Below, in pieces: positions 7,962-34,570 of a stretch of 34,570 nt of DNA. Source of the stretch: Deltaproteobacteria bacterium (lineage in GTDB: Bacteria; Desulfobacterota; Desulfobacteria; Desulfobacterales; JAUVKB01); NCBI GenBank assembly GCA_030596405.1, contig JAUVKB010000001.1, positions 1 through 34,570 of the forward strand, read 5' to 3'. Each line of letters opens with the position of its first letter. The stretch's first letter is position 1. The notes under the pieces are model-generated. The model did no database searches. It was not told where the DNA came from and worked only from the letters and a program-made list of their open reading frames with translations. The translations under genes were made by a program, and so were the position numbers.

Positions 7962-8140
7962 ATCAGGCTCCTGCATGTTAATGCTGAACATTGCTATTTT
8001 TTTACATTAAAACCTAACATCATAAAAACCGTTTGTAAAGAATATCTCCCACATATCCCAAATAAGCGCCTTGAATTAGAAATTGCTGTTTACCGACAAA
8101 TAACGTATTAGAAACTGATTCAAAACAAAAATAAACAAAA

Positions 8141-11669: not shown

Positions 11670-12887
11670 CTATTTTTTATCCAGTTCGAATGCCGAGTGA
11701 AGGACACGAACCGCAAGTTCAGTATATTTTTCTTCGATAACGCAAGATATTCTGATTTCTGATGTGCTGATCAGCCTGATATTTATATTTTCATCGGCCA
11801 GTGCGGCAAACATTTTTGCAGCGACCCCTGAATGGCTTTTCATGCCGACACCGGTAACGGATATCTTTGCGATATTTTCGGCAGACAATACTTCTTCTGC
11901 ATTTATCTCTTGCGCCACTTTGCTGGATATTTCCAGCGCTGCTTTAAAGTCTGTTTTAGGAACGGTGAATGTAAGATCTGTTTGCCCGCCGGAACGGGTA
12001 TTTTGGATTATCATATCAACATGAATGCCCGCTTCTGCAATGGGGGAGAACAGCTTTGCTGAGATTCCCGGCTGATCAGGAACTTTTTTCAGAGTGATTC
12101 GCGCTTCATCTTTGTTACAGGTTACACCGGATACGACAGGACTTTCCATGCTGGAATCTTCGTTTACAACCATAGTGCCCTCCTTCTCATAAAATGATGA
12201 CCTCACATGCACAGGGACGTTATATTTTTTTGCAAATTCAACCGAACGAATTTGAAGAACTTTTGCGCCGAGACTTGACATTTCAAGCATTTCATCAAAT
12301 GAAATTTTGTCCAGCTTCCTTGCTTTTTTGCAGATGTTCGGATCCGCGGTATAAATTCCATCCACGTCGGTATATATTTCACATACATCCGCTTTAAGCG
12401 CATGTGCTATTGCCACGGCGGACGTGTCCGACCCACCTCGACCAAGTGTCGTAATGTTACCTTCGGCGTCCCATCCCTGAAACCCTGCTATCACGACGAT
12501 GTTACGTTTATCAATCAGCTCCCTGACACGGTTAGCGCCTATTTTAACAATTCGGGCGTAACCGAAATTTGGATCGGTAACAATTTCCGCCTGAAATCCA
12601 AGTAATGATACAGCAGGGTAATTCATGGCTTTTAATGTCATTGATAAAAGAGCTACGGTTGTCTGTTCTCCTGTCGCAAGCAAGACATCGAGCTCACGTT
12701 TTTCAGGAGAGTCGGTCACTTCCCTTGCCAGCCCGATCAGATTGTCAGTAGTGCCTGCCATGGCTGAAAGGATGACGACCACATCGTTACCCTGATCAAA
12801 TGTCTTTGCAACCCGCCTGGCCACAATGCGGATACGCTCGACATCAGCAACCGAAGTTCCACCGTATTTTTGAACAATTAAACCCAT
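11670..12887 (-). CDS. lysC: Aspartate kinase
   Basis: ATG at 12887 is preceded by AAGGAG. The N-terminus is MGLIVQKYGGTSV. The protein has an amino-acid kinase domain and two C-terminal ACT-like repeats, 405 aa in total. Confidence 0.95.
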   Translation of the reverse strand: MGLIVQKYGGTSVADVERIRIVARRVAKTFDQGNDVVVILSAMAGTTDNLIGLAREVTDSPEKRELDVLLATGEQTTVALLSMTLKAMNYPAVSLLGFQAEIVTDPNFGYARIVKIGANRVRELIDKRNIVVIAGFQGWDAEGNITTLGRGGSDTSAVAIAHALKADVCEIYTDVDGIYTADPNICKKARKLDKISFDEMLEMSSLGAKVLQIRSVEFAKKYNVPVHVRSSFYEKEGTMVVNEDSSMESPVVSGVTCNKDEARITLKKVPDQPGISAKLFSPIAEAGIHVDMIIQNTRSGGQTDLTFTVPKTDFKAALEISSKVAQEINAEEVLSAENIAKISVTGVGMKSHSGVAAKMFAALADENINIRLISTSEIRISCVIEEKYTELAVRVLHSAFELDKK

Positions 12888-21916: not shown

Positions 21917-22570
21917 CTAAAATAACAACAAGAGACCGCAAGCCTCTTGATTCTGCTTGACGGTTCCCCCAAAAAGACCGGCAATATTTTCTAACCTCGA
22001 CCATTTTTCCGATGAAGATATGTTCTGGAAAAATTCGGTTTTGTCTGCAAAATTTCCATCACATGAGAGTTGGACACCAATTTTGTCTTCCGTTTTACTA
22101 AGGTGAATATCTATCCGCCCTCCTTCAGACATCAAATCCAGGCAGCATTCAAAACATGCCAACAATCCCATCTGTAGATGAACCGGATTTGTTTCAACAG
22201 CAATGGCTTGATCCGGGGGGTGAAGCTTTAAAACAACGTTTTTTAACCTGGCAAATCGCTGTGATAAATCGACCAGCACTTCAACTGTTTCATAAAGGTC
22301 GATTTTTGATGTGGTTTCGTCCGTGCTATGGGCGAATTTGTTAAGGCGGGATGTCAATTCCACTCCCCGTTGAATCTGTTCCTTTATGACGGACAGGGCT
22401 TTTTTTATTTTTTCCTCATGAGGGAGAGGCGCCTCTTGCAGCATAAACATCAGATCTTCCATAAGACCGGAAGATTCTTTTATGATCGCCAGAACATTTT
22501 TCATTTCATGGGTAACGCCCGCAGTTATTTTTCCAAAAAATGCGATTTCTTTATAATCTGATTCTTTCAT
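21917..22570 (-). CDS. Soluble histidine-kinase-like protein with H-box but degenerate ATP-binding domain
   Basis: The H-box GVTHEMKNVLAII resembles that of the adjacent kinase (GVAHEINNPMAII). The region where the N, G1 and G2 boxes should lie reads LLACFECCLD / SCDGNF / no GxGLGL. Confidence 0.65.
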   Translation of the reverse strand: MKESDYKEIAFFGKITAGVTHEMKNVLAIIKESSGLMEDLMFMLQEAPLPHEEKIKKALSVIKEQIQRGVELTSRLNKFAHSTDETTSKIDLYETVEVLVDLSQRFARLKNVVLKLHPPDQAIAVETNPVHLQMGLLACFECCLDLMSEGGRIDIHLSKTEDKIGVQLSCDGNFADKTEFFQNISSSEKWSRLENIAGLFGGTVKQNQEACGLLLLF

Positions 22571-22599
22571 GATATTTCCTCAAAACACGCCTTGTTCCA

Positions 22600-22968
22600 T
22601 TATCGGCTATTAATCGCTTCTTGCATTTTCTTGATTAATTCATCGATATTTAACGGTTTCATCAAGTAATCATACGCGCTTTCCAGCATCGTTTCAATTT
22701 CTTGCTCAGTAGAACCATGTCCGGTCAGAAGAATAACCGGAATTTGTGAGTTTATAGCTTTAATCCTCTGAAGAACTTCCAGACCTCCCAGGCCCGGCAT
22801 CATAACATCCAAAACTACTATATCCGGAGAATCATTTTCAATGATTCGCAGCGCTATCTCACCGTTTGTGGCGACCTGAACATTTATTCCTCTCAAATCG
22901 AGCCTTTCCGCCAAAGTCGTGACAAATTCTTCCTCATCATCAACAAGTACAACTTTCCAGTCGGCCAT
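22600..22968 (-). CDS. Single-domain response regulator (CheY-like receiver)
   Basis: VVLVDDE..., phospho-acceptor context IVVLDVMMPGLGG, LLTGHG, and YLMKP. The start abuts the kinase stop (22969), and GGGGGGA lies upstream. Confidence 0.92.
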   Translation of the reverse strand: MADWKVVLVDDEEEFVTTLAERLDLRGINVQVATNGEIALRIIENDSPDIVVLDVMMPGLGGLEVLQRIKAINSQIPVILLTGHGSTEQEIETMLESAYDYLMKPLNIDELIKKMQEAINSR

Positions 22969-24699
22969 TTATCCCCCCTGTTCATTTTTGGGTTTTTTCA
23001 GCAAATAAACTGTAAAGGTCGTGCCCTCTCTTTCCTGGCTCTGCACCTTGAAATCCCCGCCTAGTTTTTTTACAATTCCATAGGTGATAGGAAGCCCCAG
23101 ACCGGTGCCGGTCCCCTTTTTGGTCGTAAAAAAAGGTTCAAATATATGATGGAGAACATCTTCCGACATACCGCATCCATTATCCCTGATAGAGACACCA
23201 ACAGTATCGGCATCGTTATCCCATGTTGTGATAGTAATCTGTCCGCCATCTTCCACAGCGGCAAAAGCATTCGTGAGGATATTAAGGAAAACCTGTTGGA
23301 GTTGCCCCCTGTCTGAAGATATATGGGGCAAATCATCCGCAAGGTTGATGTTTAGATTGATTTTTCGATACAAGGCTTCCCTTTCAAGAAAGCCGATCAC
23401 CTCTTTAATGATTTTATTCAGATCCAACACCTCAAAAAGCACTTCTAAACGGCGTGCAAAACCCAACAGGCGATGGGTAATAGTTTTGCAACGTTCAACT
23501 GATTGAATAATCGATTCCGTCAGCTCAAGCAGCTTCGCTTTTTTTTTGAAATCCGGAGTAAATTCGACTATATCCTTCATTAAGCCGGCTTTTTCATTGA
23601 TTATGGCCATTGGGTTGTTAATTTCATGGGCTACGCCGGCGGCCAGTCTTCCGATGGATGAAAGCTTGTGGCTGTGTTCCAGCTCCCTGAGGGCCGACTC
23701 CCGCTTTTCAACAGCTTCTCGAATCTGTCTGACCAATATACCTGTAAGCTTGATAATTACTAAAATAATCACCACAATGCTGACGATAAAGATAAAGAAC
23801 ATTTTGTTTTTAAGCGTATACCACGACTTTAAAACAACGGAATGTGGTTTGATTGCAACCAGTGTATAATCATACTCCATAAAATGGTTGTAGGCCAAAA
23901 ACACATCAACCCCACGAGGATCTTTTGTTTCTATCACGCTGGTTCCGCTGTGTTTTGTCTGGGGAATTAAAAAGGGGCAATGTTCCAGTATTTTCCCGTA
24001 AAATTTAGAGTTGGTCTGAAAAATGCCTTCCCGGTTTATTAAGAAGGCATCACTTTTTGGGTCAAGTTCCATGGAAGAAATAAGATTGTCAAATCTGTAA
24101 GTATCGATTGTGGCGCGCAGTGTCCAGGCCTTGTCTCTTGCCGATAAATGCTGAGCGGCAACAGCAATGTGGGGAAACTTGCGGTATCCCATAAAAACGT
24201 CACTGACATATTCACCCCTTAACTGGGCCTCCTGAAACCAGCTCTGCTCGGAATAGTTTTTTCCCAAAAGTTCATAAGGGCCGCAATAACTTACCTGTAT
24301 GCCGTGGTCATCAATCACTCCCAAATCGACAAACCCACCGAATTCCTTTTTTAAAACCAGCAAAATATGACTCAGCGTCTTAGTATTCGACAACTCCTCA
24401 AAACGATAAGCAGATGCGATGAATTTTACGGTAGAGAGCCGTTCTTCCAATAAAAGTTCAAAGGAATGCCTTGTCTTGTCCGACATTATACGTAAGGGGT
24501 TGATCGTTTCGTTTTTAAGCTCTGTCTGATATTGATGATAATTAATGGCTGCCATGACAGTAATGGGAACAATAGTCACCACGATCATTAATACAATCAT
24601 ATTTCTGCGAAGTTTATGGCGGCGAATTGGAGAGATATTTTCATCATTGTAATACAATAAGCCTCTGGTTAAAGTGCTTATCCATTTATTAATACCCAT
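22969..24699 (-). CDS. Sensor histidine kinase with periplasmic Cache-type domain
   Basis: Two TM helices flank a ~250-aa Cache-like domain. H-box AAGVAHEINNPMAI, N-box NILTNAFAA, G1 DNGCGM, and G2 GTGLGLPI. Confidence 0.92.
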   Translation of the reverse strand: MGINKWISTLTRGLLYYNDENISPIRRHKLRRNMIVLMIVVTIVPITVMAAINYHQYQTELKNETINPLRIMSDKTRHSFELLLEERLSTVKFIASAYRFEELSNTKTLSHILLVLKKEFGGFVDLGVIDDHGIQVSYCGPYELLGKNYSEQSWFQEAQLRGEYVSDVFMGYRKFPHIAVAAQHLSARDKAWTLRATIDTYRFDNLISSMELDPKSDAFLINREGIFQTNSKFYGKILEHCPFLIPQTKHSGTSVIETKDPRGVDVFLAYNHFMEYDYTLVAIKPHSVVLKSWYTLKNKMFFIFIVSIVVIILVIIKLTGILVRQIREAVEKRESALRELEHSHKLSSIGRLAAGVAHEINNPMAIINEKAGLMKDIVEFTPDFKKKAKLLELTESIIQSVERCKTITHRLLGFARRLEVLFEVLDLNKIIKEVIGFLEREALYRKINLNINLADDLPHISSDRGQLQQVFLNILTNAFAAVEDGGQITITTWDNDADTVGVSIRDNGCGMSEDVLHHIFEPFFTTKKGTGTGLGLPITYGIVKKLGGDFKVQSQEREGTTFTVYLLKKPKNEQGG

Positions 24700-24723
24700 T
24701 ATTACCTCGCAGTGGCAGACTTT

Positions 24724-25533
24724 TTATAGGCAGATTCCATATTGTTTTGTTTTAACAACGGATTCTTTGAGATACTGAAAAACACCGGCCCCTTCTTTAG
24801 AAGCTTTTTCCTTTCCCATGACGACCAGGTTAACAAAATTTATTTTCTCTTTGTTTAAACTGCTGATCTGTTCATCAATGAGCTTTATGGTATTGCTGAA
24901 TGTGCTGTAAACAACAAAGGGACCGAACAAGATTTCTCCGTCCTTTTTTTTGGTTAACGCGCCGATAACATTTTGATCCGGCAGTTTAAAGACTTTTGGC
25001 GGAGAAATATATCCAAGCAGCTCGGCAAAAAGGGCAAGGGATTCTATTACGCCGTCTTTATTCCCTATTTCCAGAGCTGTTGCCGCGTCTTTTTCGATTT
25101 CATCCATGTCAGACTCGTCAAAGGAAAGGTCGAGCATGTCGATACATTCTTTTTGGATAATTTTGACGGTCTCTTCTTTTTTGCTGATAATAACATCAGC
25201 ATCGTTTAATATTTTAATTATATTTCGCACGCTCAGCATTTCTTTGACCGAGGGGCTTTTTCGCAGCCCGATATCTTCCGCCGAGGTGTTGTAAATGGCA
25301 AGATCATTATCGAGCACCAGAATCTTTTCCTTACCGGAATTATCTTTCATAATGTAAAGATCAAGATCCCGCTCCCGCCTAAACATGCAAGAGCGCATTT
25401 CAAGGAGCAACCGCATTGTTTTTTTGTCAACCTTATGGGTGCCGTCAACAGGAGAGATATCGATAGACTTTAACACCTTACTGGCCAACCGGTCTATCGT
25501 AATTTTTTTTAAAAGATTTTTTTTAAACGTCAT
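24724..25533 (-). CDS. Hypothetical cytoplasmic protein (269 aa), first gene of the two-component operon
   Basis: Long ORF with ATG 25533 and AAGGGGA upstream. It ends 24 nt before the kinase start. No TM segment was seen and no motif was recognised. Confidence 0.6.
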   Translation of the reverse strand: MTFKKNLLKKITIDRLASKVLKSIDISPVDGTHKVDKKTMRLLLEMRSCMFRRERDLDLYIMKDNSGKEKILVLDNDLAIYNTSAEDIGLRKSPSVKEMLSVRNIIKILNDADVIISKKEETVKIIQKECIDMLDLSFDESDMDEIEKDAATALEIGNKDGVIESLALFAELLGYISPPKVFKLPDQNVIGALTKKKDGEILFGPFVVYSTFSNTIKLIDEQISSLNKEKINFVNLVVMGKEKASKEGAGVFQYLKESVVKTKQYGICL

Positions 25534-26121: not shown

Positions 26122-27495
26122 TTACCCGTAAGTTTTTAGTTTTCTTCTAAGGGTGTTTATTCCTATATCCAAAAGTCTGGCTGTTTGAGATTTATTTCTT
26201 CCTGTTTGATCATATGTCTTGAGAATATACGATTTTTCAACGTCAGCCAGAGAAACTATACTATTTATTTCTTTTTGATACTGTTTGTCCGGTATAGTTT
26301 TTTTTGTTTTTTTAATCCGCATTTGCCCTGGAAGAAAATTTGCGGTTATAATTTTTCCTTGAGCCAGATTTACGGCAGACTGAATAATTGCCTTTAGTTC
26401 CCTGATATTCCCGGGATAATCGTAATCCATAAGTAAAGACATGGCTTGCTCTTCAACAAAGCAACTACCGGAATTACCGGAAAACTCCTTTAAAAATTTA
26501 TTTATCAACAACGGTATGTCATTTTTTCTCTCCCGGAGGGGCGGAAGGTGGAGCCACCCCCCTCTGAGACGGTAATATAGATCCTTGCGAAACATCTTTT
26601 TGTCCATCAATATATCAAGGTCTTCATTCGTGGCTGCAATAAAGCGGATATCAACTTTTTGCTGCGCGCTGTTCCCTAACTTGATATATTCTCCGGACTG
26701 GAGGACCCGAAGCAATTTTCCTTGAAGTTCGGGTGACAGGTTGCCGATTTCATCCAAAAAGACTGTTCCCTGGTTTGTGTATTCAAGGTGGCCGGAACGA
26801 TTTTTGTCCGCACCTGTAAAAGCACCCTTTGTATGGCCGAAAAACTCGGCATCAAAAAGATTGCCGGCTATAGAAGCCATGTTGATCGGAGTAAACGGAA
26901 ATTTTGATCTTGCGCTTACAGTGTGAATAGCCCTGGCCAAAAGTTCCTTGCCGGTGCCGCTTTCTCCTGTAATTAAAACAGGGACATCACTTAGAGCGTG
27001 CAGTTCTGTTTCCTTCAATATCTTAAGGATCTTATGCGATCTTGTTATAATAGGTTTAAATGCTTTTACATTTATTAATTTCGGCAGGGTCTTCTTTTTT
27101 TCAATATCAAGAATATCGAGCAGCCGTTTCCTTTCCATAGACCGGTTAATTGCCGAAAGCAGGTCTTCTTTAGAAACAGGCTTGACAAGATAATCATATG
27201 CTCCTTTTTTTAAGCATTCCACCGCGGTCCTGGCTTCATTCACAGCGGTTACCATTATACACTCGGTGTTGGGACTGGTGTTTTTTATTATCTCAAGGAG
27301 TTTGATCCCATCCATACCGGGCATTGTCATATCGATCAGGGCAATATCAAAAATTTCGTCTTGCTCAAAAATTAAAGCAGCCTTTACAGGATCATCCTCA
27401 AGTACGATGTTTTTATATCCTGTTTCGGTCAATTTTATTTTTAATATTTCAAGAAAATCGAGGTCGTCGTCAATAATTATAATATTACCGGTCAT
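26122..27495 (-). CDS. Sigma-54-dependent response regulator (NtrC family: receiver, AAA+, Fis-type HTH)
   Basis: Receiver domain with IALIDMTMPGMDG. AAA+ domain with GESGTGKELLARAIH and the sigma-54 contact loop GAFTGA. C-terminal HTH QTARLLDIGINTLRRKLKTYG. Confidence 0.95.
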   Translation of the reverse strand: MTGNIIIIDDDLDFLEILKIKLTETGYKNIVLEDDPVKAALIFEQDEIFDIALIDMTMPGMDGIKLLEIIKNTSPNTECIMVTAVNEARTAVECLKKGAYDYLVKPVSKEDLLSAINRSMERKRLLDILDIEKKKTLPKLINVKAFKPIITRSHKILKILKETELHALSDVPVLITGESGTGKELLARAIHTVSARSKFPFTPINMASIAGNLFDAEFFGHTKGAFTGADKNRSGHLEYTNQGTVFLDEIGNLSPELQGKLLRVLQSGEYIKLGNSAQQKVDIRFIAATNEDLDILMDKKMFRKDLYYRLRGGWLHLPPLRERKNDIPLLINKFLKEFSGNSGSCFVEEQAMSLLMDYDYPGNIRELKAIIQSAVNLAQGKIITANFLPGQMRIKKTKKTIPDKQYQKEINSIVSLADVEKSYILKTYDQTGRNKSQTARLLDIGINTLRRKLKTYG

Positions 27496-27640
27496 TTACC
27501 CTCCCCCTTGTCTGTAACTTCTCAATCACCGGTACCAAGCAGGGTGCTTGCCTGGATTGATTTAGGAGTCACCCTTTAACCTTCCTTAGTAAATGCAAAG
27601 TTTTAGCGATATTACAGCATTCGTATCAAAAAAGACTGTG

Positions 27641-27710
27641 CCAAAATGGAAGATACGGACTATAACAGCTTGAATTAAAAATAATTTCTTAACTACATAT
27701 CCCATTTTGG
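27641..27710. promoter_or_regulatory. Candidate enhancer (UAS): inverted CCAAAATGG / CCATTTTGG pair
   Basis: The 9-nt cores at 27641-27649 and 27702-27710 are exact reverse complements. They lie 114-183 nt upstream of the -24 element. The adjacent near-palindrome GGAACAATTGTCC is at 27709-27721. Confidence 0.4.
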
Positions 27711-27823
27711 AACAATTGTCCATATATTTCAAATTTATTCAACACAAAAGCCGATATTTCCACACCTCCTATAACGCTTTGATTATACATGTATTTCGGT
27801 TATATGCCCGGCAATATTTTTTG

Positions 27824-27839
27824 TGGCACGCTGCTTGCT
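27824..27839 (+). promoter_or_regulatory. Sigma-54 (-24/-12) promoter
   Basis: TGGCACGCTGCTTGCT matches TGGCAC-N5-TTGCW at every conserved position. It lies 84 nt upstream of ATG 27923 and is divergent from a sigma-54 activator gene. Confidence 0.85.
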
Positions 27840-27922
27840 CTATTTACTGATTAAAGCAAAATTCAGGTTTTACAAAGCTGTTATTTTTCATAATCTTTTA
27901 AGGCCTTTTAAGGAATTTAAGT

Positions 27923-28798
27923 ATGGATTTAAAAAACAAATTTAACGCAGGGGAATTTGTCATTCTGGCGGAGATTGAGCCTCCCAAGGGTGTGGATATA
28001 TCCACGATGGTAACCAACGCCACAATGGTAAAAGGAAAAGCGGATGCATTGCTGGTGCCGGAAATGAGCAACGCGGTTATGCGGATGAGCGCACTCGGCG
28101 GCGCTATGATCCTCCAGGGCAAAGTGATGGAAACGGTGATGCAGGTTAACTGCCGGGACAGGAATCGATTGGCTTTGCAGGCTGATTTGCTGGCAGCATC
28201 CGCATGCGGCATAACCGGTATCATGGCTGTAACAGGAGAAGATCCGAGTTTCGGAGACCACCAGCAGGCCAAGGCGGTATATGACATTGACCTGCCGGAG
28301 CTGCTTGATTCCATTCATAAGCTTCAACAAGGTCGGGATATGGCTGGAATTGATCTTTGCGGTTCTCCACAATTTCTGGTTGGTTCTACGGTTAATCCTG
28401 GGCTCAAGGGGATGGCGCTTGAGCTTGAACTTACAGAAATGAAAAAAAAGATTGATGCCGGGGTTGAATTTTTAATAATGCCGCCTCTGTTTGATCTTGA
28501 TTCCATTGAGCCGTTTTTAAAGATGGTTGATCACCGGAAGACGCATATCATTCCCACGGTATTACTGCTTAAATCAGTGGGGATGGCCCGATATATTGAT
28601 CGTAATATGGATCATGTGCATGTCTCGGCACAGCTTATAAAAAGATTGCAAAAAGCGCCGGACAAAGTGCGCGAATGCATAAAAATCGCATCTGAAATGG
28701 TTTCTGTTTTAAAACGGGAAGGGTTCAGCGGAGTCCTTCTTTCCACCATAGGCTGGGAAGACAGGCTCGCTGAAATTATTGATGGGAGCAAGGGATAA
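27923..28798 (+). CDS. Methylenetetrahydrofolate reductase family protein (MetF-like paralogue 1)
   Basis: 291 aa. The N-terminus [14 protein letters not shown] is an acetogen-type MetF opening, and the rest has a TIM-barrel-like pattern ([12 protein letters not shown]..., [21 protein letters not shown]). AAGGAA lies 8 nt before the ATG. Confidence 0.8.
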
Positions 28799-28838
28799 GC
28801 CGCAAACTATATTTATGCAACACAAAAACGGGGTACTG

Positions 28839-31800
28839 ATGAGCCAAAACCAGGAAAAAAAATACATGGAAAAAGATAAAGATTTTGTCGGCTCGGTTAT
28901 GGTAGTGGGAGGAGGAATTGCAGGTATGCAGTCGGCTCTCGATCTTGCCAGTTCCGGTTATTACGTCTATCTTTTAGAAAAATCGTCTGCCATTGGCGGG
29001 ATGATGTCCCAGTTGGACAAAACCTTTCCGACCAATGATTGCGCCATGTGAGTGATTTCGCCCAAACTGGTCGAGGTCGGCCGGCACCTGAATATAGAGC
29101 TTTTAACCGATACGGAAATTCTTAACCTTAAAGGCGATCCGGGACGTTTTACCGCCCTGGTAAGTCAAAAACCGCGTTTTGTAGATCTTTCCAAATGCAC
29201 AAGTTGCGGAGAATGTGTCAAGGTTTGTCCGGTTTCACTTCCAGACGGATACGATCAGGGGCTTTCCGAACGAAAAGCAGTCTACAAACAATACCCCCAG
29301 GCAATTCCTGGTGCTTTTGCCATCACTAAAAGGTCAACCGCACCGTGCAAGGCCACCTGCCCTGCCCATGTGAGTATCCAGGGCTACATAGCCTTGATCA
29401 ATGACGGTCGCTATGAAGAGGCTCTGAAACTTTTTAAGGAAGAACACCCGTTTCCCGGGGTTTGCGGCAGGGTCTGCCATCATCCCTGCGAAGATGTTTG
29501 TACCCGCAATGATTTGGATCAGCCTATTGCAATTCAACATCTCCACAGATTTCTGGCGGATTATGATTTTACCAGCGAAGATCCGTATGTACCGGAAACA
29601 GGGGAAATACGGGAGGAAAAAATTGCCATTATAGGCACTGGCCCGGCAGGTCTGACAACCGCATATTTTCTGGCGAGAAAGGGTTACCTCGTTACGATTT
29701 TCGAAAAACTTCCGGTTACAGGCGGCATGATGAGGGTTGGCATCCCTGAATATCGTCTTCCCGAAAATATCTTGAATGCTGAAATTTCAACAATCGAAAA
29801 AATGGGAGTTTCGATAAAAACCGGCGTTGAATTCGGCAGGGATATTACGATGAAAAGCCTTAAGCAAGACGGATTTAAGGCTCTGTTTTTGGCTATCGGG
29901 CTTCACGGCAGCCGTAAACTGGGAGTAGCTGGTGAAGATCTGGAAAATATTCTACCAGGAGTTGCTTTTTTAAGGGATGTATCTTTGGGTAAAAATGTAA
30001 AGATAGGGAAAAAGGTAGTTGTTGTAGGCGGTGGAAATGTGGCTATTGACGTATCCCTTACAGCGAAACGTCTTGGCGTTGACAAGGTGACTATGGTCTG
30101 CCTTGAATCACGGGAGGAAATGCCTGCCTGGGATTATGAGGTTGAAGAGGCTATAGAGGAAAATATTGAAATACTCAACTGTTTTGGCCCAAAGTGTTTT
30201 AACGGAAAAGATGAAAAAATCACATCTGTTGATTTTAAGCAATGCATATCTGTTTTTGATGAAAACCGGCGTTTTAATCCGCAGTATGATGAAAACATAG
30301 TTCAAACATTAAAAGCCGACACCTTGATTGTCGCCATAGGCCAGATGGGAGAATTCGACTTTGCCGAAGATGAAGATATTGCTCTATCTCCCCAAGGCGG
30401 ACTTGAAGCGGATCCTTTAACTTTTCAGACACCTATTTCCTGGATCTTTGCCGGCGGTGATGCGGTTTACGGACCCAAATCGGTTGTGGACGCGGTTGCG
30501 TGCGGAAAGGAAGTGGCAGAAAGTATAGACCGATATCTTAACAACCAGGATTTAAAAAAGGACAGGATAAAGGAGTGGCCCTATGAAAAGCCGGATATAA
30601 CCGGTGAGTGCGGCAAGGAAAGAAATCTGTTGCATTATCTTCCTGTTGAACAGCGGGAAGGAAATTTCATGGAAATTGCCTCGGGGTATAATGAAAAAAA
30701 TGCCTTAAAGGAAGCGGACAGGTGTTTAAATTGCGGTATTTGCAGCGAATGTTATCAATGTGTGGATGCGTGCCTGGCCGAAGCAATTGATCACAGCCAA
30801 AAGCTTGTAGAAAAAGAAATCAAAGTCGGTTCGCTTATTCTTTGCCCCGGCAGTGAGCCGTTTGACCCTACAATATTCCAGGAATTTTATCTTTACAAGA
30901 AAAACCCCAATGTGCTTACAAGCCTGGAATTTGAACGGATTTTAAGCGCATCCGGCCCCACCATGGGACATCTTGTCAAGATGTCGGACAAAACCGAACC
31001 TAAAAAAATAGCCTGGCTCCAGTGTGTCGGTTCCAGGGATACAAACCGGTGCGGCAACGGTTACTGTTCTTCTGTTTGCTGCATGTATGCGGTGAAAGAA
31101 GCGATGATCGCAAAAGAGCATGCAGCCGGTGGCCTCGATTGTGCTATTTTTAATATGGATATGCGTACATTCGGCAAAGATTATGAAAAATATTATTTAA
31201 GAGCTAAAAATGATGCCGGGGTCCGTTTTGTCAAAGCGCGGATACATACCATAGACGAAATTAAAGAGACCGGCGAATTGAACCTGCAATACGTGGATGA
31301 GGCTGGAAAAATTATTCAGGAGCGTTTCGACATGGTGGTTCTTTCCGTGGGTCTTGCTATCTCGGAGTCTACCGCCGAACTGGCCGGACGTCTTGAGGTG
31401 GAGCTCGATAAATACAAATTTGCAGTTTCAGAACCGTTTATGCCGGTTCAAACATCACGCCCCGGTGTTTATGCCTGCGGAGTATTTCAGGGCCCCAAAG
31501 ACATTCCGACTTCGGTGATTGAAGCAAGCGCTGCGGCCGGAGCTGTTGGATCTCTTTTAGCGGATGTACGCGATACCCTTACTAAAAGCGTAGAAATTCC
31601 CGAAGAAATTGATATCGCCGGGCAAGAACCGAGGATAGGAGTTTTTGTGTGTAAATGCGGGATTAATATTGCCGGGGTTGTGGATGTGGATGCAGTGGAA
31701 GAATACGCAAAAACCCTGCCCAACGTGGAGTATGTCGGTCAAAACCTTTTTACATGTTCCCAGGATACCCAGGAGCAGATGAAAGAGGTTATTATCGAAC

Positions 31801-33296
31801 AGAAGCTTAACCGGATTGTGGTTGCGTCATGCACTCCCAAGACCCATGAGGGTATTTTTATGGATACCCTGCAGGCTTGCGGGCTCAATAAATACCTTTT
31901 TGAAATGGCCAATATCAGAAACCAGGATTCATGGATTCATTCAGATATGCCTGAAAAGGCCACTGAAAAAGCTAAAAAACTTGTCAAGATGGCGGTTGCA
32001 CGCGTTGCCACACTCTATCCGCTCCATGAAAAAATAATTCCGGTTACCCGGCGTGCCTTGATTATCGGCGGCGGTGTGGCAGGCATGAATGCTGCTCTTG
32101 CTCTTGGAGACCAGGGGTTTGAAGTTGTTCTGGTGGAAAAAGAGACCAAACTTGGAGGTCTTGCAAACCGGCTGACCACTACCATTGAAGGAGCCGATAT
32201 CGGAGAATACCTGGATGATCTGACCCATAAAATTACTAACCATCCGAAAATCCAGGTGCTGGTTCAGTCTCTTATCGTCGGATTTGAAGGGTTCAAGGGT
32301 AATTTTACCACAGAAGTGCTGGTGGGGCCGGGAATGTATGAAAGAAAGATCGATCATGGGGTTATTATTTTGGCAACAGGCGCAAATGAATATCAGCCCA
32401 ATGAATTTTTATACGGCCACGACCGCCGCGTTATGACACAGATAGAACTGTCGGAGCATCTGGAAAATAATGACACAAAAAGTCTTGACCAGGTTGTCAT
32501 GATTCAGTGCGTTGGCTCTCGAAATGATGATAACCCGAACTGCTCGAGAATTTGCTGCCAGAGCGCGGTTAAAAATGCGATCCATATAAAGGAGGATAAC
32601 CCTGAAACAAATGTTTATATTTTGTACCGCGACATCAGGATGTACGGTCTTTTGGAAGAATACTACACCATGGCCAGACGTTTGGGAGTTATCTTTTTTA
32701 GATACACGCTGGATGATCCGCCGCAAGTGAAGTCTTCTGAGGACGGGGTTGAAGTGACTTTCAAAGATCATGTCCTTGGAAAACGGCTTGTTGTTTCCGC
32801 AGATCTTCTGGCACTCAGTGTAGGAATGCGCGCCGAAGATACAGAAGAACTTGCTTCCATAATAAAACTTGCCCGTAATCCGGAAGGGCATTTTATTGAA
32901 GCTCACGTAAAGCTGAGACCTGTGGATATGTCTACGGAAGGTATTTTTGTATGCGGAACCGCACACAGCCCCTTGTTGATTTCCGAATCGATATCCCAGG
33001 CATTTGCCGCCGCATCAAGGGCATCCACATTTTTATCTCAACCGCACCTTACCCTGTCGGCTGTAACGGCCAAGGTTGAAGAAGAAAAGTGCGCAGCCTG
33101 TCTTGTTTGCGTCAGATCTTGTCCGTACGGCGTGCCTGTAATAAATGACAAAGGTGTTAGTGAAATAGACCAGGCCCTGTGCCACGGGTGCGGCGTTTGT
33201 GCATCTGAATGTCCGGCCAAGGCTATTGAATTAAACTGGTACGAGGATGATCAAATATTGTGCGAGGTTGAGGCCTTGCTTGAGGGGGTTTTATGA
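28839..33296 (+). CDS. hdrA: Giant HdrA-family flavoprotein (HdrL-type) with selenocysteine at UGA 29049-29051, an inserted GltD/NfnB-like NAD(P)H module and a second HdrA-like module
   Basis: The frame is open from 28779 to 33296 except for TGA at 29049. The start is ATG 28839 (alternatives 28815 and 28866). Motifs in order: (1) [13 protein letters not shown]; (2) [19 protein letters not shown]; (3) GltD-like CPAH...[20 protein letters not shown] and [12 protein letters not shown]; (4) [13 protein letters not shown]; (5) CVGSRD...[10 protein letters not shown]; (6) [12 protein letters not shown]; (7) [14 protein letters not shown]; (8) CVGSRN...CSRICCQSA; (9) terminal 2x[4Fe-4S] [12 protein letters not shown] / [12 protein letters not shown]. 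Confidence 0.85.
29067..29084 (+). other. Candidate bacterial SECIS hairpin for the hdrA UGA
   Basis: CUGGUCG-AGGU-CGGCCGG forms a 7-bp stem with two G.U pairs and a GGU-containing tetraloop. It starts 15 nt after the UGA. Confidence 0.5.
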
Positions 33297-33721
33297 GTAG
33301 TTTTGATCCTGTAATTATAGCGTTTTGCTGCAATTTCTGAGGTTACACTGCCGCGGACCTGGCAGGTTCCATGAGATTGAAATACCCGGCAAGCATCAAA
33401 ATTGTCAGGATTCCATGCACTGGAAAGGTTGATATTCTCCATATTCTGCGCGCCTTTGAAATGGGGGCGGACGGGGTCTATGCGGTTGGATGCATGGAAG
33501 GTGATTGTCATTACGACAGCGGTAATTTCTGGGCACGCAAACGAGTGGAGCAGGCCCGGAAAATTTTAGATACAATCGGTATCGGAGGTGAAAGGGTGCA
33601 GATGTATAATCTGTCCGCCGGAGAGGGGCCCCTCTTTGCAGAATATGCGGTGGAAATGCATGAAAAAATATTAAAATTGGGGCCTAACCCGTTAAAACTC
33701 GCAAAAAAGAAGGCTGCCTGA
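33293..33721 (+). CDS. mvhD: MvhD-like (methyl-viologen-reducing hydrogenase delta subunit family) [2Fe-2S] protein with selenocysteine at UGA 33338-33340
   Basis: ATG at 33293 overlaps the hdrA stop (ATGA) and has GAGGGGG upstream. Translation gives [47 protein letters not shown]. This restores the conserved MvhD N-terminus (CCNxC...AG.DLAG). The track ORF from ATG 33371 lacks it. Confidence 0.82.
33345..33369 (+). other. Candidate SECIS hairpin for the mvhD UGA
   Basis: Two alternative folds are possible. One is GGACCU-GGC-AGGUUC (33355-33369, 6 bp, starting 14 nt after the UGA). The other is CUGCC-GCGGACCU-GGCAG (33348-33365), extendable by A45-U67 and C46-G66 with A47 bulged. Confidence 0.4.
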
Positions 33722-33736
33722 AAAGTCAGGCCTTTT
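33716..33736 (+). terminator. Weak hairpin plus short U-run overlapping the mvhD stop codon (intra-operon attenuator or processing site?)
   Basis: GCCTGA-AAAG-TCAGGC forms a 6-bp stem and is followed by CTTTTG. It lies in the 75-nt gap before metV. Confidence 0.3.
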
Positions 33737-33796
33737 GCGAAATCATAAAATTCTGAGCAATCACAAATAATTTAATTTTAAAAGGGGTTAGATCTT

Positions 33797-34465
33797 ATGA
33801 TTGTTGCTGATAAAAAACCTATTGAAGAGATTATTGGGGAGATTAAAGATTATACCACCATCCTTATCCTGGGCTGCAACGAGTGTGTCACGGTCTGCGA
33901 AGCCGGAGGTAAAAAAGAGGTGGGAATTCTGGCGTCAGCCTTGAGGATGTATTTTCTAAACCAGGGGAAAGATGTGACAATAGACGAAAGGACCCTGGAG
34001 CGGCAATGCGACCACGAATATCTGGAAGAGATCCGTGATGTGGCTGACCAATATGACGCCATAGTATCGCTTGCATGCGGTGTGGGAGTGCAATTTACAG
34101 CGGAAAAATACCATGCCGTACCGGTTATACCCGGAGTCAATACATGTTTCTTGGGCGCCACGGAAACAAGAGGCCTCTGGACTGAAAGATGTCAGGCCTG
34201 CGGCGAGTGTATTCTGGCGCGGACAGGCGGAATTTGTCCGGTTTCCAGATGTGCCAAAAGGATTTTAAACGGTCCCTGCGGCGGAGCGAGCAACGGCAAA
34301 TGCGAAATCAATAAGGAGCTTGACTGTGCCTGGCAGTTGATTATCGACAGATTAAAGGCACTGGGGAGGCTCGATGATTATGAAAATATAAGTCCCATTA
34401 AAGACTGGTCAACCGATCGGGCCGGCGGGCCTCGAAGAGTTGTGAGGGAGGACGTGCAGCTATGA
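33797..34465 (+). CDS. metV: Methylenetetrahydrofolate reductase C-terminal-domain protein (MetV-type Cys-rich subunit)
   Basis: Cys clusters are GCNECVTVCEAGG and CQACGECILARTGGICPVSRCAKRILNGPCGG..NGKCE, the MTHFR_C signature. AAAGGGG lies upstream of the ATG. Confidence 0.82.
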   Translation: MIVADKKPIEEIIGEIKDYTTILILGCNECVTVCEAGGKKEVGILASALRMYFLNQGKDVTIDERTLERQCDHEYLEEIRDVADQYDAIVSLACGVGVQFTAEKYHAVPVIPGVNTCFLGATETRGLWTERCQACGECILARTGGICPVSRCAKRILNGPCGGASNGKCEINKELDCAWQLIIDRLKALGRLDDYENISPIKDWSTDRAGGPRRVVREDVQL

Positions 34466-34570
34466 ATGTAAAGACACCAAGCAGACTGGAAAAAGTTCTT
34501 TCCGCTGGCCTACTTGCCGTAACATCGGAATGTGGCCCGCCTCGCGGTAGTGATCCTGAAGTTATCACTA
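34462..34570 (+). CDS. metF: Methylenetetrahydrofolate reductase (MetF paralogue 2), 5' fragment truncated by the window end
   Basis: The ATG overlaps the metV stop (ATGA), and GAGGGAGGA lies upstream. MNVKTPSRLEKVLSAGLLAVTSECGPPRGSDPEV matches the acetogen-type MetF N-terminus (E-x-x-PP-[KR]-G). Confidence 0.72.
   Translation, partial: MNVKTPSRLEKVLSAGLLAVTSECGPPRGSDPEVIT

Follow-up and report, generated by a model that had tools for sequence, protein, structure and literature searches.

A selenocysteine-containing metF1–hdrL–mvhD–metV–metF2 operon of Desulfobacterales with a sigma-54-type promoter, a candidate HdrA-based methylene-tetrahydrofolate reductase

Analysis of the 34,570-nucleotide (nt) window, the whole stretch of contig JAUVKB010000001.1 to which all positions refer unless a locus is named, showed five open reading frames (ORFs) on the plus strand between 27.8 kb and the window end: metF-like (metF1), hdrL, mvhD, metV and metF2 (Table 1). 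They encode a divergent protein of the methylene-tetrahydrofolate reductase (MTHFR) fold, a large HdrA-family selenoprotein, an MvhD-type selenoprotein, the Cys-rich small subunit of MetVF-type reductases and the beginning of a canonical MetF. An earlier note, made from the letters of this DNA, had described here a sigma-54-driven cluster without hdrBC and had proposed it as a candidate for a bifurcating, NAD(P)H-coupled MTHFR. The identities it gave to the five co-directional genes were borne out by the ORF list and by Pfam searches with every product, and the translational coupling it reported was found on direct reading of the sequence, the hdrL stop and mvhD start sharing ATGA at 33293–33296 and the metV stop and metF2 start sharing ATGA at 34462–34465. 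In hdrL, further in-frame ATG codons are present at 28782, 28815 and 28866, so the metF1–hdrL gap is uncertain, which accounts for the 16–67 nt given in that note.

For comparison, 80 loci of Desulfobacterales were fetched (loci fetched for comparison are labelled L0xx below); at least 598 candidate stretches matched. The order metF1–hdrL–mvhD–metV–metF2 is preserved in essentially all of the 80, and MetV is 81–96% identical to that of the window across them, so that the gene-neighborhood comparison proposed earlier finds the five-gene cluster conserved. The nearest relative among the compared genomes is the metagenome-assembled genome (MAG) ‘Desulfobacterales bacterium G11’ (JAERRQ01), with 96–99% protein identity.

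Table 1. Features of the operon region and its divergent activator in the window (aa, amino acids; Sec, selenocysteine; SECIS, selenocysteine insertion sequence)
Feature	Position	Strand	Basis or remark
NtrC-type sigma-54 activator, divergent from the operon	26122–27495	−	PF00158 3e-60, PF00072 2e-25, PF02954 2e-10
Two imperfect palindromes TGTGCC-N5-GGCACA, candidate upstream activator sites	27637–27653, 27698–27714	.	motif enrichment
Sigma-54 −24/−12 promoter TGGCACgctgcTTGCT	27824–27839	+	exact consensus
metF-like (MetF1), divergent MTHFR-fold protein, 291 aa	27923–28798	+	PF02219 87.5 bits (cutoff 24)
hdrL, selenoprotein, 1485 aa counted from ATG 28839	28839–33296	+	Pfam, 5ODC_A alignment
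hdrL Sec codon TGA, Sec71 (Cys197 of M. wolfeii HdrA)	29049–29051	+	alignment NDCSIC versus NDCAMU
hdrL SECIS-like block AAACTGGTCGAGGTCGGCCGGCA	29064–29086 (hairpin 29067–29084)	+	near-invariant, +16 to +38 after TGA
NfnB/GltD-like insert, residues ~166–632	29334–30734	+	PDB matches
HdrL half 2, residues 927–1485	31617–33293	+	5ODC_A alignment, translation
mvhD, selenoprotein, 142 aa	33293–33721	+	PF02662 E 4e-47, 123/123 profile positions
mvhD Sec codon TGA, Sec16	33338–33340	+	aligns with Sec (‘X’) of VhuD chain 9sfi_K
mvhD SECIS-like block GCGGACCTGGCAGGTTC	33353–33369	+	near-invariant, +16 to +32 after TGA
Short GC hairpin (6 bp), GCCTGA-AAAG-TCAGGC, in the 75-nt mvhD–metV gap	33716–33731		scan lists − strand; + strand read directly
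metV, Cys-rich small subunit of MetVF-type reductases, 222 aa	33797–34465	+	PF12225 E 1e-37
metF2, 5′ end of canonical MetF, 36 codons before window end	34462–34570	+	ortholog comparison

The product of hdrL is the central protein of the cluster. Pfam searches detected Fer4_20 and Pyr_redox_2 at residues 166–554, motifs for binding flavin adenine dinucleotide (FAD) near residues 20 and 1074, and two C-terminal Fer4 domains. Four stretches align with HdrA of M. wolfeii (5ODC_A; E down to 7e-169), namely residues 45–165 with 171–291, 635–847 with 293–503, 929–1107 with 2–180, and 1334–1481 with 500–650, and the middle and C-terminal parts of HdrL match each other at 27–30% identity. Judging from this four-piece alignment and the internal duplication, HdrL consists of two HdrA halves that complement each other, fused into a pseudo-dimer. 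Half 1 has no N-terminal Fe–S domain but carries Sec71 and the only ‘inserted ferredoxin’ domain; half 2 carries the N-terminal Fe–S domain, an FAD motif, the cluster of the thioredoxin-reductase domain and the only C-terminal 2×[4Fe-4S] ferredoxin domain, with Glu at the position of Cys197 and no inserted ferredoxin domain. All elements of the HdrA family are present once or twice across the two halves, with Sec replacing Cys197. Fused HdrAs with a complementary pattern of Cys197 and N-terminal domain, including the HdrA of Moorella MetFV–HdrABC–MvhD, were described by Chadwick et al. 2022 (PMC9012536).

The inserted ferredoxin domain is interrupted, between its two Cx2Cx2Cx3C motifs, by an NfnB/GltD-like insert of about 470 residues, which carries two [4Fe-4S] sites, an FAD site and a nicotinamide-nucleotide site (Fer4_20, FAD and nucleotide Rossmann domains; PF14691 3e-22, PF07992 2e-61). 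The PDB matches of the insert are 9bov_A (2e-114), ‘NfnA’ 9n5u_A (4e-105), StnC 8oh5_C (3e-100), T. maritima NfnB 4ylf_B (8e-71) and P. furiosus NfnI-L (2e-63), as well as GltD. The 5ODC_A alignment, Pfam and PDB matches thus confirm the view of the earlier note that the large protein belongs to the HdrA family, with a GltD/NfnB module fused in and a second HdrA module. The HdrL cysteines that should ligate about nine [4Fe-4S] clusters show 100% conservation in 52 orthologs, and 7957 homologs were found at E ≤ 1e-50. NCBIfam contains no equivalog model for HdrL, and its HdrA models score below their equivalog cutoffs; by these scores HdrL is not an equivalog of methanogen-type HdrA.

Genes hdrL and mvhD each contain an in-frame TGA codon. 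The codon is TGA in all 71 orthologs of hdrL and all 79 of mvhD, at Cys-homologous Fe–S positions, which confirms the Sec codons proposed for both genes. An interpretation of these codons as marks of pseudogenes was rejected, since the frames continue for 1414 and 126 codons and TGA is universal at the Cys columns. Both codons are followed by near-invariant blocks. Including synonymous positions, the hdrL block is invariant in 68 distinct sequences and the mvhD block in 75, each except for one position at 99%, while neighboring third positions around the blocks are only 33–73% conserved (37–71% flanking the hdrL block). The block of hdrL folds as CUGGUCG-AGGU-CGGCCGG, with a loop, AGGU, which we take to resemble that of E. 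coli fdhF. Minimum-free-energy folding after both TGA codons was no better than in shuffled controls (z ~0), so the SECIS assignment rests on RNA-level constraint, in the form of synonymous-site invariance; the blocks after both codons fit SECIS elements in this respect. Genes selABCD and the gene for tRNA-Sec were not found in the window.

Because both Sec genes are routinely split or truncated by gene callers, the system is under-annotated in genomes and proteomic databases. In the gene calls of L082 and L083, hdrL is represented by products of 61–70 aa and 1414 aa (the split genes lie at 8033–12490 of L082 and 5563–9993 of L083) and mvhD by a product of 116 aa. Most database homologs of HdrL are the 1414-aa fragment, and the public names ‘4Fe-4S ferredoxin’ and ‘FAD-dependent oxidoreductase’ mask the HdrL family.

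The two MTHFR-type proteins of the cluster differ considerably, MetF1 being 33% identical to MetF2. A single-sequence search of the PDB with MetF1 gave no match and a profile search was needed; the ortholog profile recovers MTHFR from human and from E. coli (E 3e-8 to 4e-6). In the AlphaFold model of MetF1 (predicted local distance difference test, pLDDT, 74; predicted template modeling score, pTM, 0.75), the top 50 PDB matches are all MTHFR, with a TM-score of 0.66–0.75, and by this model MetF1 is a real MTHFR-fold protein. Relative to E. coli MetF, Glu28 is kept in 23 of 25 MetF1 sequences, Asp120 is replaced by Glu in 24 of 25 and Gln183 by Pro in 22 of 25. MetF1 is under strong purifying selection (69–79% mean column identity) and has 4923 homologs at E ≤ 1e-10. 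The equivalents of Glu28, Asp120 and Gln183 are kept in all 25 MetF2 sequences; MetF2 of the window is 97% identical over 35 residues to the 311-aa ortholog of L001, which scores 127 bits on PF02219. The assignment of two MTHFR-family proteins therefore stands for both as regards family and fold, while MetF1, with Asp120 changed to Glu and Gln183 to Pro, is not a simple second MetF. Neither MetF keeps the Thr59–Tyr60 FAD contacts of E. coli MetF; a different flavin-binding motif in MetF of bifurcating complexes was noted by Poudel et al., citing Bertsch 2015 (PMC6085437). No relative of MetV with a solved structure was found, and MvhD scores 179.6 on the NCBIfam VhuD model, below the cutoff of 215. 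On the plus strand, no more than four T come after the hairpin in the mvhD–metV gap; a role as weak attenuator or processing site is conceivable, which could set different levels for the two halves of the operon.

The nucleotide-binding Rossmann fold of the insert carries a coenzyme motif. Its five best solved relatives have D-x-(A/V)-R-(T/S)-A ... Y-R-R-(T/S), while the insert of the window has D-V-S-L-T-A ... C421-L422-E423, with Leu407 in place of Arg (30057–30059; 30099–30107). In Rossmann folds, a preference for NADH over NADPH is classically marked by an acidic residue where the second beta-strand ends, along with the loss of arginines. Since the Arg residues are lost and C-L-E stands in place of Y-R-R, the HdrL module of the window is predicted to use NADH. 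The nicotinamide module proposed in the earlier note is therefore present, with its coenzyme narrowed from NAD(P)H to predicted NADH.

According to this motif, the inserts fall into class I, with [VIA]-C-L-E, found in 29 loci and the window and also in L082 and L083 (L050, from the cultured Desulfamplus magnetovallimortis, is of this class), and class II, with Y-R-R, found in 28 loci. Similarity to the window is equal in both classes for the HdrA scaffold and MvhD (70–76%) and for MetV (83%), whereas the insert is 60% identical to that of the window in class I and 43.5% in class II. This difference suggests that the NfnB-like cassette was either exchanged or sharply diverged between the classes; it may also reflect a switch of coenzyme.

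No hdrB- or hdrC-like gene is present between the five genes, and tblastn with an HdrD-like query gave no match anywhere in the window. As to the possibility that hdrB or hdrC follows the second metF directly, the near relatives have metF2–REC–aroE instead: in L001, L082 and L083, metF2 is followed by a gene for a 129-aa receiver-only (REC) protein, by aroE and then by two genes of PAS histidine kinases on the opposite strand, and no hdrB/C was found within 4.6–7 kb downstream in L001 (96–99% protein identity), L082 and L083 (94% HdrL identity). In many other loci the second gene after metF2, placed between REC and aroE, is a Sec-containing HdrD-like gene of about 455 aa, which combines an HdrC-type 2×[4Fe-4S] domain (Fer4_17) with an HdrB-type CCG domain and is split at its TGA by gene finders. 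It was found at 12062–13429 of L013 (Desulfonema magnum) and in about 27 other loci. Among the informative loci, it is present in 17 of 24 of class II and in 1 of 25 of class I, only in Desulfonema magnum (Fisher’s exact p = 8e-7, a value that ignores the shared ancestry of the loci). The absence of hdrBC thus holds for the window and for L001, L082 and L083, but not as a property of the cluster type.

The 129-aa receiver-only regulator has a canonical Asp pocket; its gene is the next one after metF2 in most loci fetched (7618–8007 of L001; 14735–15124 of L082), with 74–88% identity, and appears on these grounds to belong to the conserved cluster. Tandem arrangements were also observed. L007, L009, L015, L020 and L064 contain metF1–hdrL(class II)–mvhD(Cys) followed by hdrAA(no insert)–mvhD(Sec)–metV–metF2–REC–hdrD, and two hdrA–mvhD modules between metF1 and metV, with Cys in the upstream MvhD, are likewise found in L004, L006, L029 and L068. 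In the tandem loci the metV-proximal module has no insert and contains Sec-MvhD, and HdrD is present in all informative ones. This arrangement hints at a pairing of MetF1 with the HdrL that bears the insert, and of MetVF2 with the second HdrA; the window would then be a merged form with a single HdrA. A second, paralogous cluster, metV′–metF′–hdrA′–hdrA′/mvhD′, lies a few kb away in L011 (6323–10722, minus strand), L002, L017, L022, L063, L065, L074 and L077; it likewise has no adjacent hdrBC, and the identity between its MetF′ and MetF2 is 58–64% in most of them, against about 43% in L065.

Regulation of the operon is represented by a sigma-54 promoter and a divergently encoded activator. TGGCACgctgcTTGCT is the sole exact match to TGGCAC-N5-TTGCW in the 34.6-kb window and lies 99 nt 5′ of the metF1 ATG; a promoter scan detected no sigma-70-like site on the plus strand of the activator–metF1 intergenic region. 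The activator consists of a receiver domain (REC), an AAA+ sigma-54 interaction domain (Sigma54_activat) and a Fis-type HTH domain (HTH_8). Orthologs 59–68% identical to it are encoded at the equivalent divergent site in 13 related loci, and L082 and L083 have one there too. The element GGCA[CT]-N5-TTGC was found in all 14 activator-bearing intergenic regions, as well as in L082 and L083, and is mostly missing from loci without the activator. From this co-occurrence, sigma-54 control of the operon is well supported at the level of sequence and is a lineage-specific feature, not one universal to the cluster type; the consensus −24/−12 promoter noticed earlier is confirmed by its exact match, the adjacent activator and the co-occurrence across loci. 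Upstream of it, the palindrome TGTGCC-N5-GGCACA is probably the binding site of the activator, judging from its enrichment: 24 matches with up to three mismatches were found versus 1.2 expected from shuffles, in 13 of the 14 activator-bearing intergenic regions, with a perfect copy in L069. The pair in the window was also recovered as inverted repeat I1.

The genes beyond the activator are not conserved among the fetched loci. Downstream of it on the same strand (21917–25533, minus) the window encodes a 269-aa protein without a family match, a dCache histidine kinase (22969–24699), a receiver-only protein (22600–22968) and a short kinase-like ORF (21917–22570). The dCache kinase and REC genes (22600–24699) were considered as the dedicated sensor of the activator; this is not supported, as they are not conserved beside it elsewhere, and a sensory link to the operon is doubtful. 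The region from 1 to 27 kb contains housekeeping genes, namely ubiE, a gene of a nadB-like flavoprotein, lon, hsp20, groEL, lysC, tsaE, pdxJ, ybeY and coaX, together with two-component genes; no other gene of the Wood–Ljungdahl pathway and no hdrB/C was found there. Rfam and tRNA scans of the whole window gave no match, and no riboswitch was detected in the leader.

From the gene content, domain architecture, Sec usage, conservation, promoter features and coenzyme motif observed, we infer complex formation, an electron path, NADH specificity, ferredoxin coupling and bifurcation. The locus would then be a sigma-54-dependent operon for an HdrA-based methylene-tetrahydrofolate (methylene-THF) reductase of the Wood–Ljungdahl pathway, the Desulfobacterales variant of Moorella MetFV–HdrABC–MvhD; with its full mechanism, this reading has in our estimate about an even chance of being right. 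By analogy with the Moorella enzyme, the five products would form one complex for the methylene/methyl-THF step. NADH would bind the NfnB/GltD-like module built into HdrL, since this inserted module is the one recognizable nicotinamide site. The FAD of the module would send electrons via its two [4Fe-4S] clusters into the split inserted ferredoxin domain, from there to the cluster formed by the N-terminal domain of half 2 and Sec71 of half 1, with the HdrA flavin as the next station. MvhD commonly links HdrA to a redox partner; here, with Sec in its cluster region, it would connect the C-terminal ferredoxin domain of half 2 with MetV and with MetF2, the catalytic subunit, which would interconvert methylene-THF and methyl-THF. 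MetF1 would be a conserved extra subunit of the MTHFR fold, possibly non-catalytic, and the divergently encoded NtrC-type activator would switch expression on.

As no disulfide-substrate subunit is encoded, a low-potential ferredoxin (Fd) is the most economical third partner, and the reaction would be 2 NADH + Fd(ox) + CH2-THF <-> 2 NAD+ + Fd(red) + CH3-THF. Midpoint potentials are about −200 mV for methylene/methyl-THF (PMC5861303, PMC6295475) and about −320 mV for NAD and −450 mV for ferredoxin (PMC6295475), so this three-partner reaction would lie near equilibrium and either direction would be possible. In a sulfate reducer oxidizing acetyl-CoA it would run from right to left, reduced ferredoxin from CO dehydrogenase pulling the oxidation of methyl-THF with NAD+. 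The same coupling logic was proposed for syntrophic acetate oxidizers (PMC6295475) and for Seep-SRB1 (PMC10553843).

Several points weigh against this reading. What is known of the locus comes from its sequence, and a single motif is the ground for predicting NADH. The purified Moorella complex neither used nor reduced ferredoxin (PMC5861303, PMC6295475). In the canonical wiring of M. wolfeii, MvhD is the entry and the inserted ferredoxin domain the low-potential exit (Chadwick 2022, PMC9012536), the low-potential branch leaving via the N-terminal cluster, completed by Cys197, and the inserted ferredoxin domain (PMC9012536). The NADH module of HdrL sits where ferredoxin would dock, and Sec71 ligates a cluster on that very branch; the module lies at the low-potential end of the methanogen enzyme, and neither the bifurcating FAD, of the three present, nor the ferredoxin site is assignable from sequence. 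Genes of HdrBC or HdrD could lie elsewhere in the genome, hdrABC being often not adjacent to metFV (Poudel et al., PMC6085437). The hairpin of the mvhD–metV gap could uncouple the expression of the two halves of the operon, and the altered catalytic residues of MetF1 leave several roles possible for it.

In a different view of the electron acceptor, the enzyme is of the Moorella type after all: an unlinked HdrBC or HdrD-like subunit would serve a disulfide, that of DsrC or another thiol carrier, as second acceptor, and ferredoxin would be optional. The Sec-HdrD-like gene found two genes after metF2 in most informative class-II loci and in the class-I locus of Desulfonema magnum is in line with this, as are the frequent separation of hdrABC from metFV–mvhD (PMC6085437) and the full conservation, in both halves of HdrL, of the thioredoxin-reductase-domain clusters, which are the HdrC contacts in methanogens. 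We nevertheless consider it unlikely, since 24 of the 25 informative class-I loci have no HdrD-like gene at that position, as is also true of L082 and L083, the window contains no HdrD-like sequence, and the loss of HdrD correlates with the change in the coenzyme motif, which suggests a different set of partners over simple relocation of a gene.

Alternatively, the complex may not bifurcate at all, HdrL and MvhD being a mere electron wire from NADH to MetVF, like Acetobacterium woodii RnfC2–MetVF. A complete NAD(H)–FAD–[4Fe-4S] entry module fused into HdrL and the absence of a gene for a third-substrate subunit from the cluster agree with such a wire, and MetF pairs with other subunits (MetV, Rnf), not every MetF being bifurcating (PMC6085437). 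However, HdrL has two HdrA flavin sites, both complete, and nine cluster sites that are conserved, well beyond the needs of a wire, and the oxidation of methyl-THF (about −200 mV) with NAD+ (about −320 mV) alone is endergonic, a problem for the expected oxidative pathway; this alternative seems quite unlikely. Finally, HdrL–MvhD could be an NADH-linked module of its own (e.g., NADH:ferredoxin or NADH:DsrC) only sharing an operon with MetVF, as might be thought from HdrL–mvhD pairs beside dsrABC in D. autotrophicum, hdrABC in S. fumaroxidans and fdhAB in Desulfurivibrio, and from the hairpin-bearing 75-nt gap between mvhD and metV. Such separation is very unlikely: metF1 lies upstream and metV–metF2 downstream of the pair, in exact order, in essentially all loci fetched, and the complex that Mock et al. 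purified from Moorella thermoacetica unites MvhD and HdrA with MetFV (cited in PMC5861303).

Within the preferred reading of an HdrA-based MTHFR with NADH and ferredoxin, a more specific proposal can be made, tentatively and with rather low confidence. Marine Desulfobacterales may carry two mechanistically different versions of one HdrA-based methylene-THF reductase, told apart by a swapped NfnB-like cassette. Class II would have an NADPH-type cassette, usually together with Sec-HdrD; class I would have an NADH-type cassette and would have dispensed with HdrBC/HdrD, being a minimal, self-contained, flavin-based confurcating enzyme in which NADH, ferredoxin and methyl-THF meet on one pseudo-dimeric HdrA, with Sec in the Fe–S cluster motifs of HdrA and MvhD.

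The question of the second electron acceptor of the HdrA-linked reductase of Moorella dates from 2014, and the confurcating reading of class I, if true, would supply this missing answer for HdrA-type MTHFRs. An HdrBC-free version with a built-in NADH module would be a simpler system for testing ferredoxin as third partner, and the switch between C-L-E and Y-R-R, tracking the absence and presence of HdrD, gives concrete predictions that can be addressed by mutation. Completely oxidizing Desulfobacterales are major mineralizers of acetate in marine sediment; essentially every relative fetched carries the cluster, and metagenomic homologs number in the thousands. The cluster itself would come as no great surprise to a specialist, and its value lies in the cleaner system and the correlation of cassette and HdrD for the question of the second acceptor.

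Among known systems, the closest is Moorella thermoacetica MetFV–HdrABC–MvhD (Mock et al. 2014, ‘type IV’ MTHFR). The locus of the window differs from it in the absence of hdrB/hdrC, the NfnB/GltD insert in HdrA, the extra divergent MetF upstream, Sec in HdrA and MvhD, sigma-54 control, and a host from a sulfate-reducer lineage, in which the step is probably oxidative. The methanogen MvhADG–HdrABC (M. wolfeii 5ODC; Sec-Vhu/Hdr of Methanococcales, 9SFI) has HdrA domains, FAD site, cluster cysteines and MvhD in common with it (E 1e-36 to 1e-169), but the window contains neither hydrogenase nor HdrBC, one asymmetric polypeptide replaces the homodimer, and the substrate is folate in place of the heterodisulfide of coenzymes M and B (CoM-S-S-CoB).

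The insert has Fer4_20, FAD and nucleotide Rossmann domains in common with NfnB of NfnAB and with StnC/NfnABC-type proteins (4YLF/4YRY, 5JCA, 8OH5, 9BOV, 9N5U); unlike these, it is embedded within HdrA's ferredoxin domain, has no NfnA partner and carries D-V-S-L-T-A and C-L-E. In the HdrA–NfnB fusions of ANME-1 (HdrA9–11), an NfnB-like insertion of about 500 aa likewise interrupts the inserted ferredoxin domain, and Chadwick et al. 2022 (PMC9012536) speculated that it connects reducing power from MetF with Hdr chemistry. These proteins are archaeal, not clustered with metF and discussed with NADPH, whereas HdrL of the window is bacterial, fused to a second HdrA half and encoded in an operon with metVF. 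Acetobacterium woodii RnfC2–MetVF (‘type III’ MTHFR) has the same MetVF core fed from NADH via an extra flavin/Fe–S subunit. In A. woodii this electron transfer is non-bifurcating. The NADH partner there is RnfC-like, while that of the window belongs to the HdrA/NfnB family.

HdrL of the window is of the HdrL type of Desulfobacterium autotrophicum HRM2. The genome paper (Strittmatter et al. 2009, PMC2702500) gives HdrL1–3 as large Hdr/glutamate-synthase fusions that have an NADH-binding region and precede mvhD. According to that paper, HdrL1 and HdrL3 are selenoproteins, HdrL1 is linked with dsrABC, and the function proposed is electron delivery to sulfite reduction, not MTHFR (PMC2702500). 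There HdrL was also considered unique to D. autotrophicum, and Desulfococcus oleovorans Hxd3 was stated to lack a protein of this type (PMC2702500). Against the claim of uniqueness, the thousands of homologs found here mean that HdrL is widespread. L059, from a MAG assigned to Desulfosudis oleivorans, contains a class-II HdrL in a metF cluster, and annotation split at Sec may explain the discrepancy with Hxd3. Later mentions of HdrL-type proteins concern S. fumaroxidans and Desulfurivibrio. In D. multivorans, ‘hdrA1’ adjoins mvhD1 and a ‘pyridine nucleotide-disulphide oxidoreductase’; hdrA1 and the latter may be one HdrL gene split at the Sec codon. Genes of HdrA/HdrABC beside metF in Seep-SRB1 were read as a bifurcating MTHFR (PMC10553843).

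A literature search found only genomic predictions and no purification, assay or structure of an HdrL-type MTHFR, in agreement with the statement of the earlier note that such assemblies have not been characterized biochemically. The cluster is not wholly new, HdrL having been named in 2009 and the adjacency of HdrA and metF in sulfate reducers having already been remarked on; it is a real, widespread and genomically noticed assembly and a plausible variant of the known Moorella-type enzyme.

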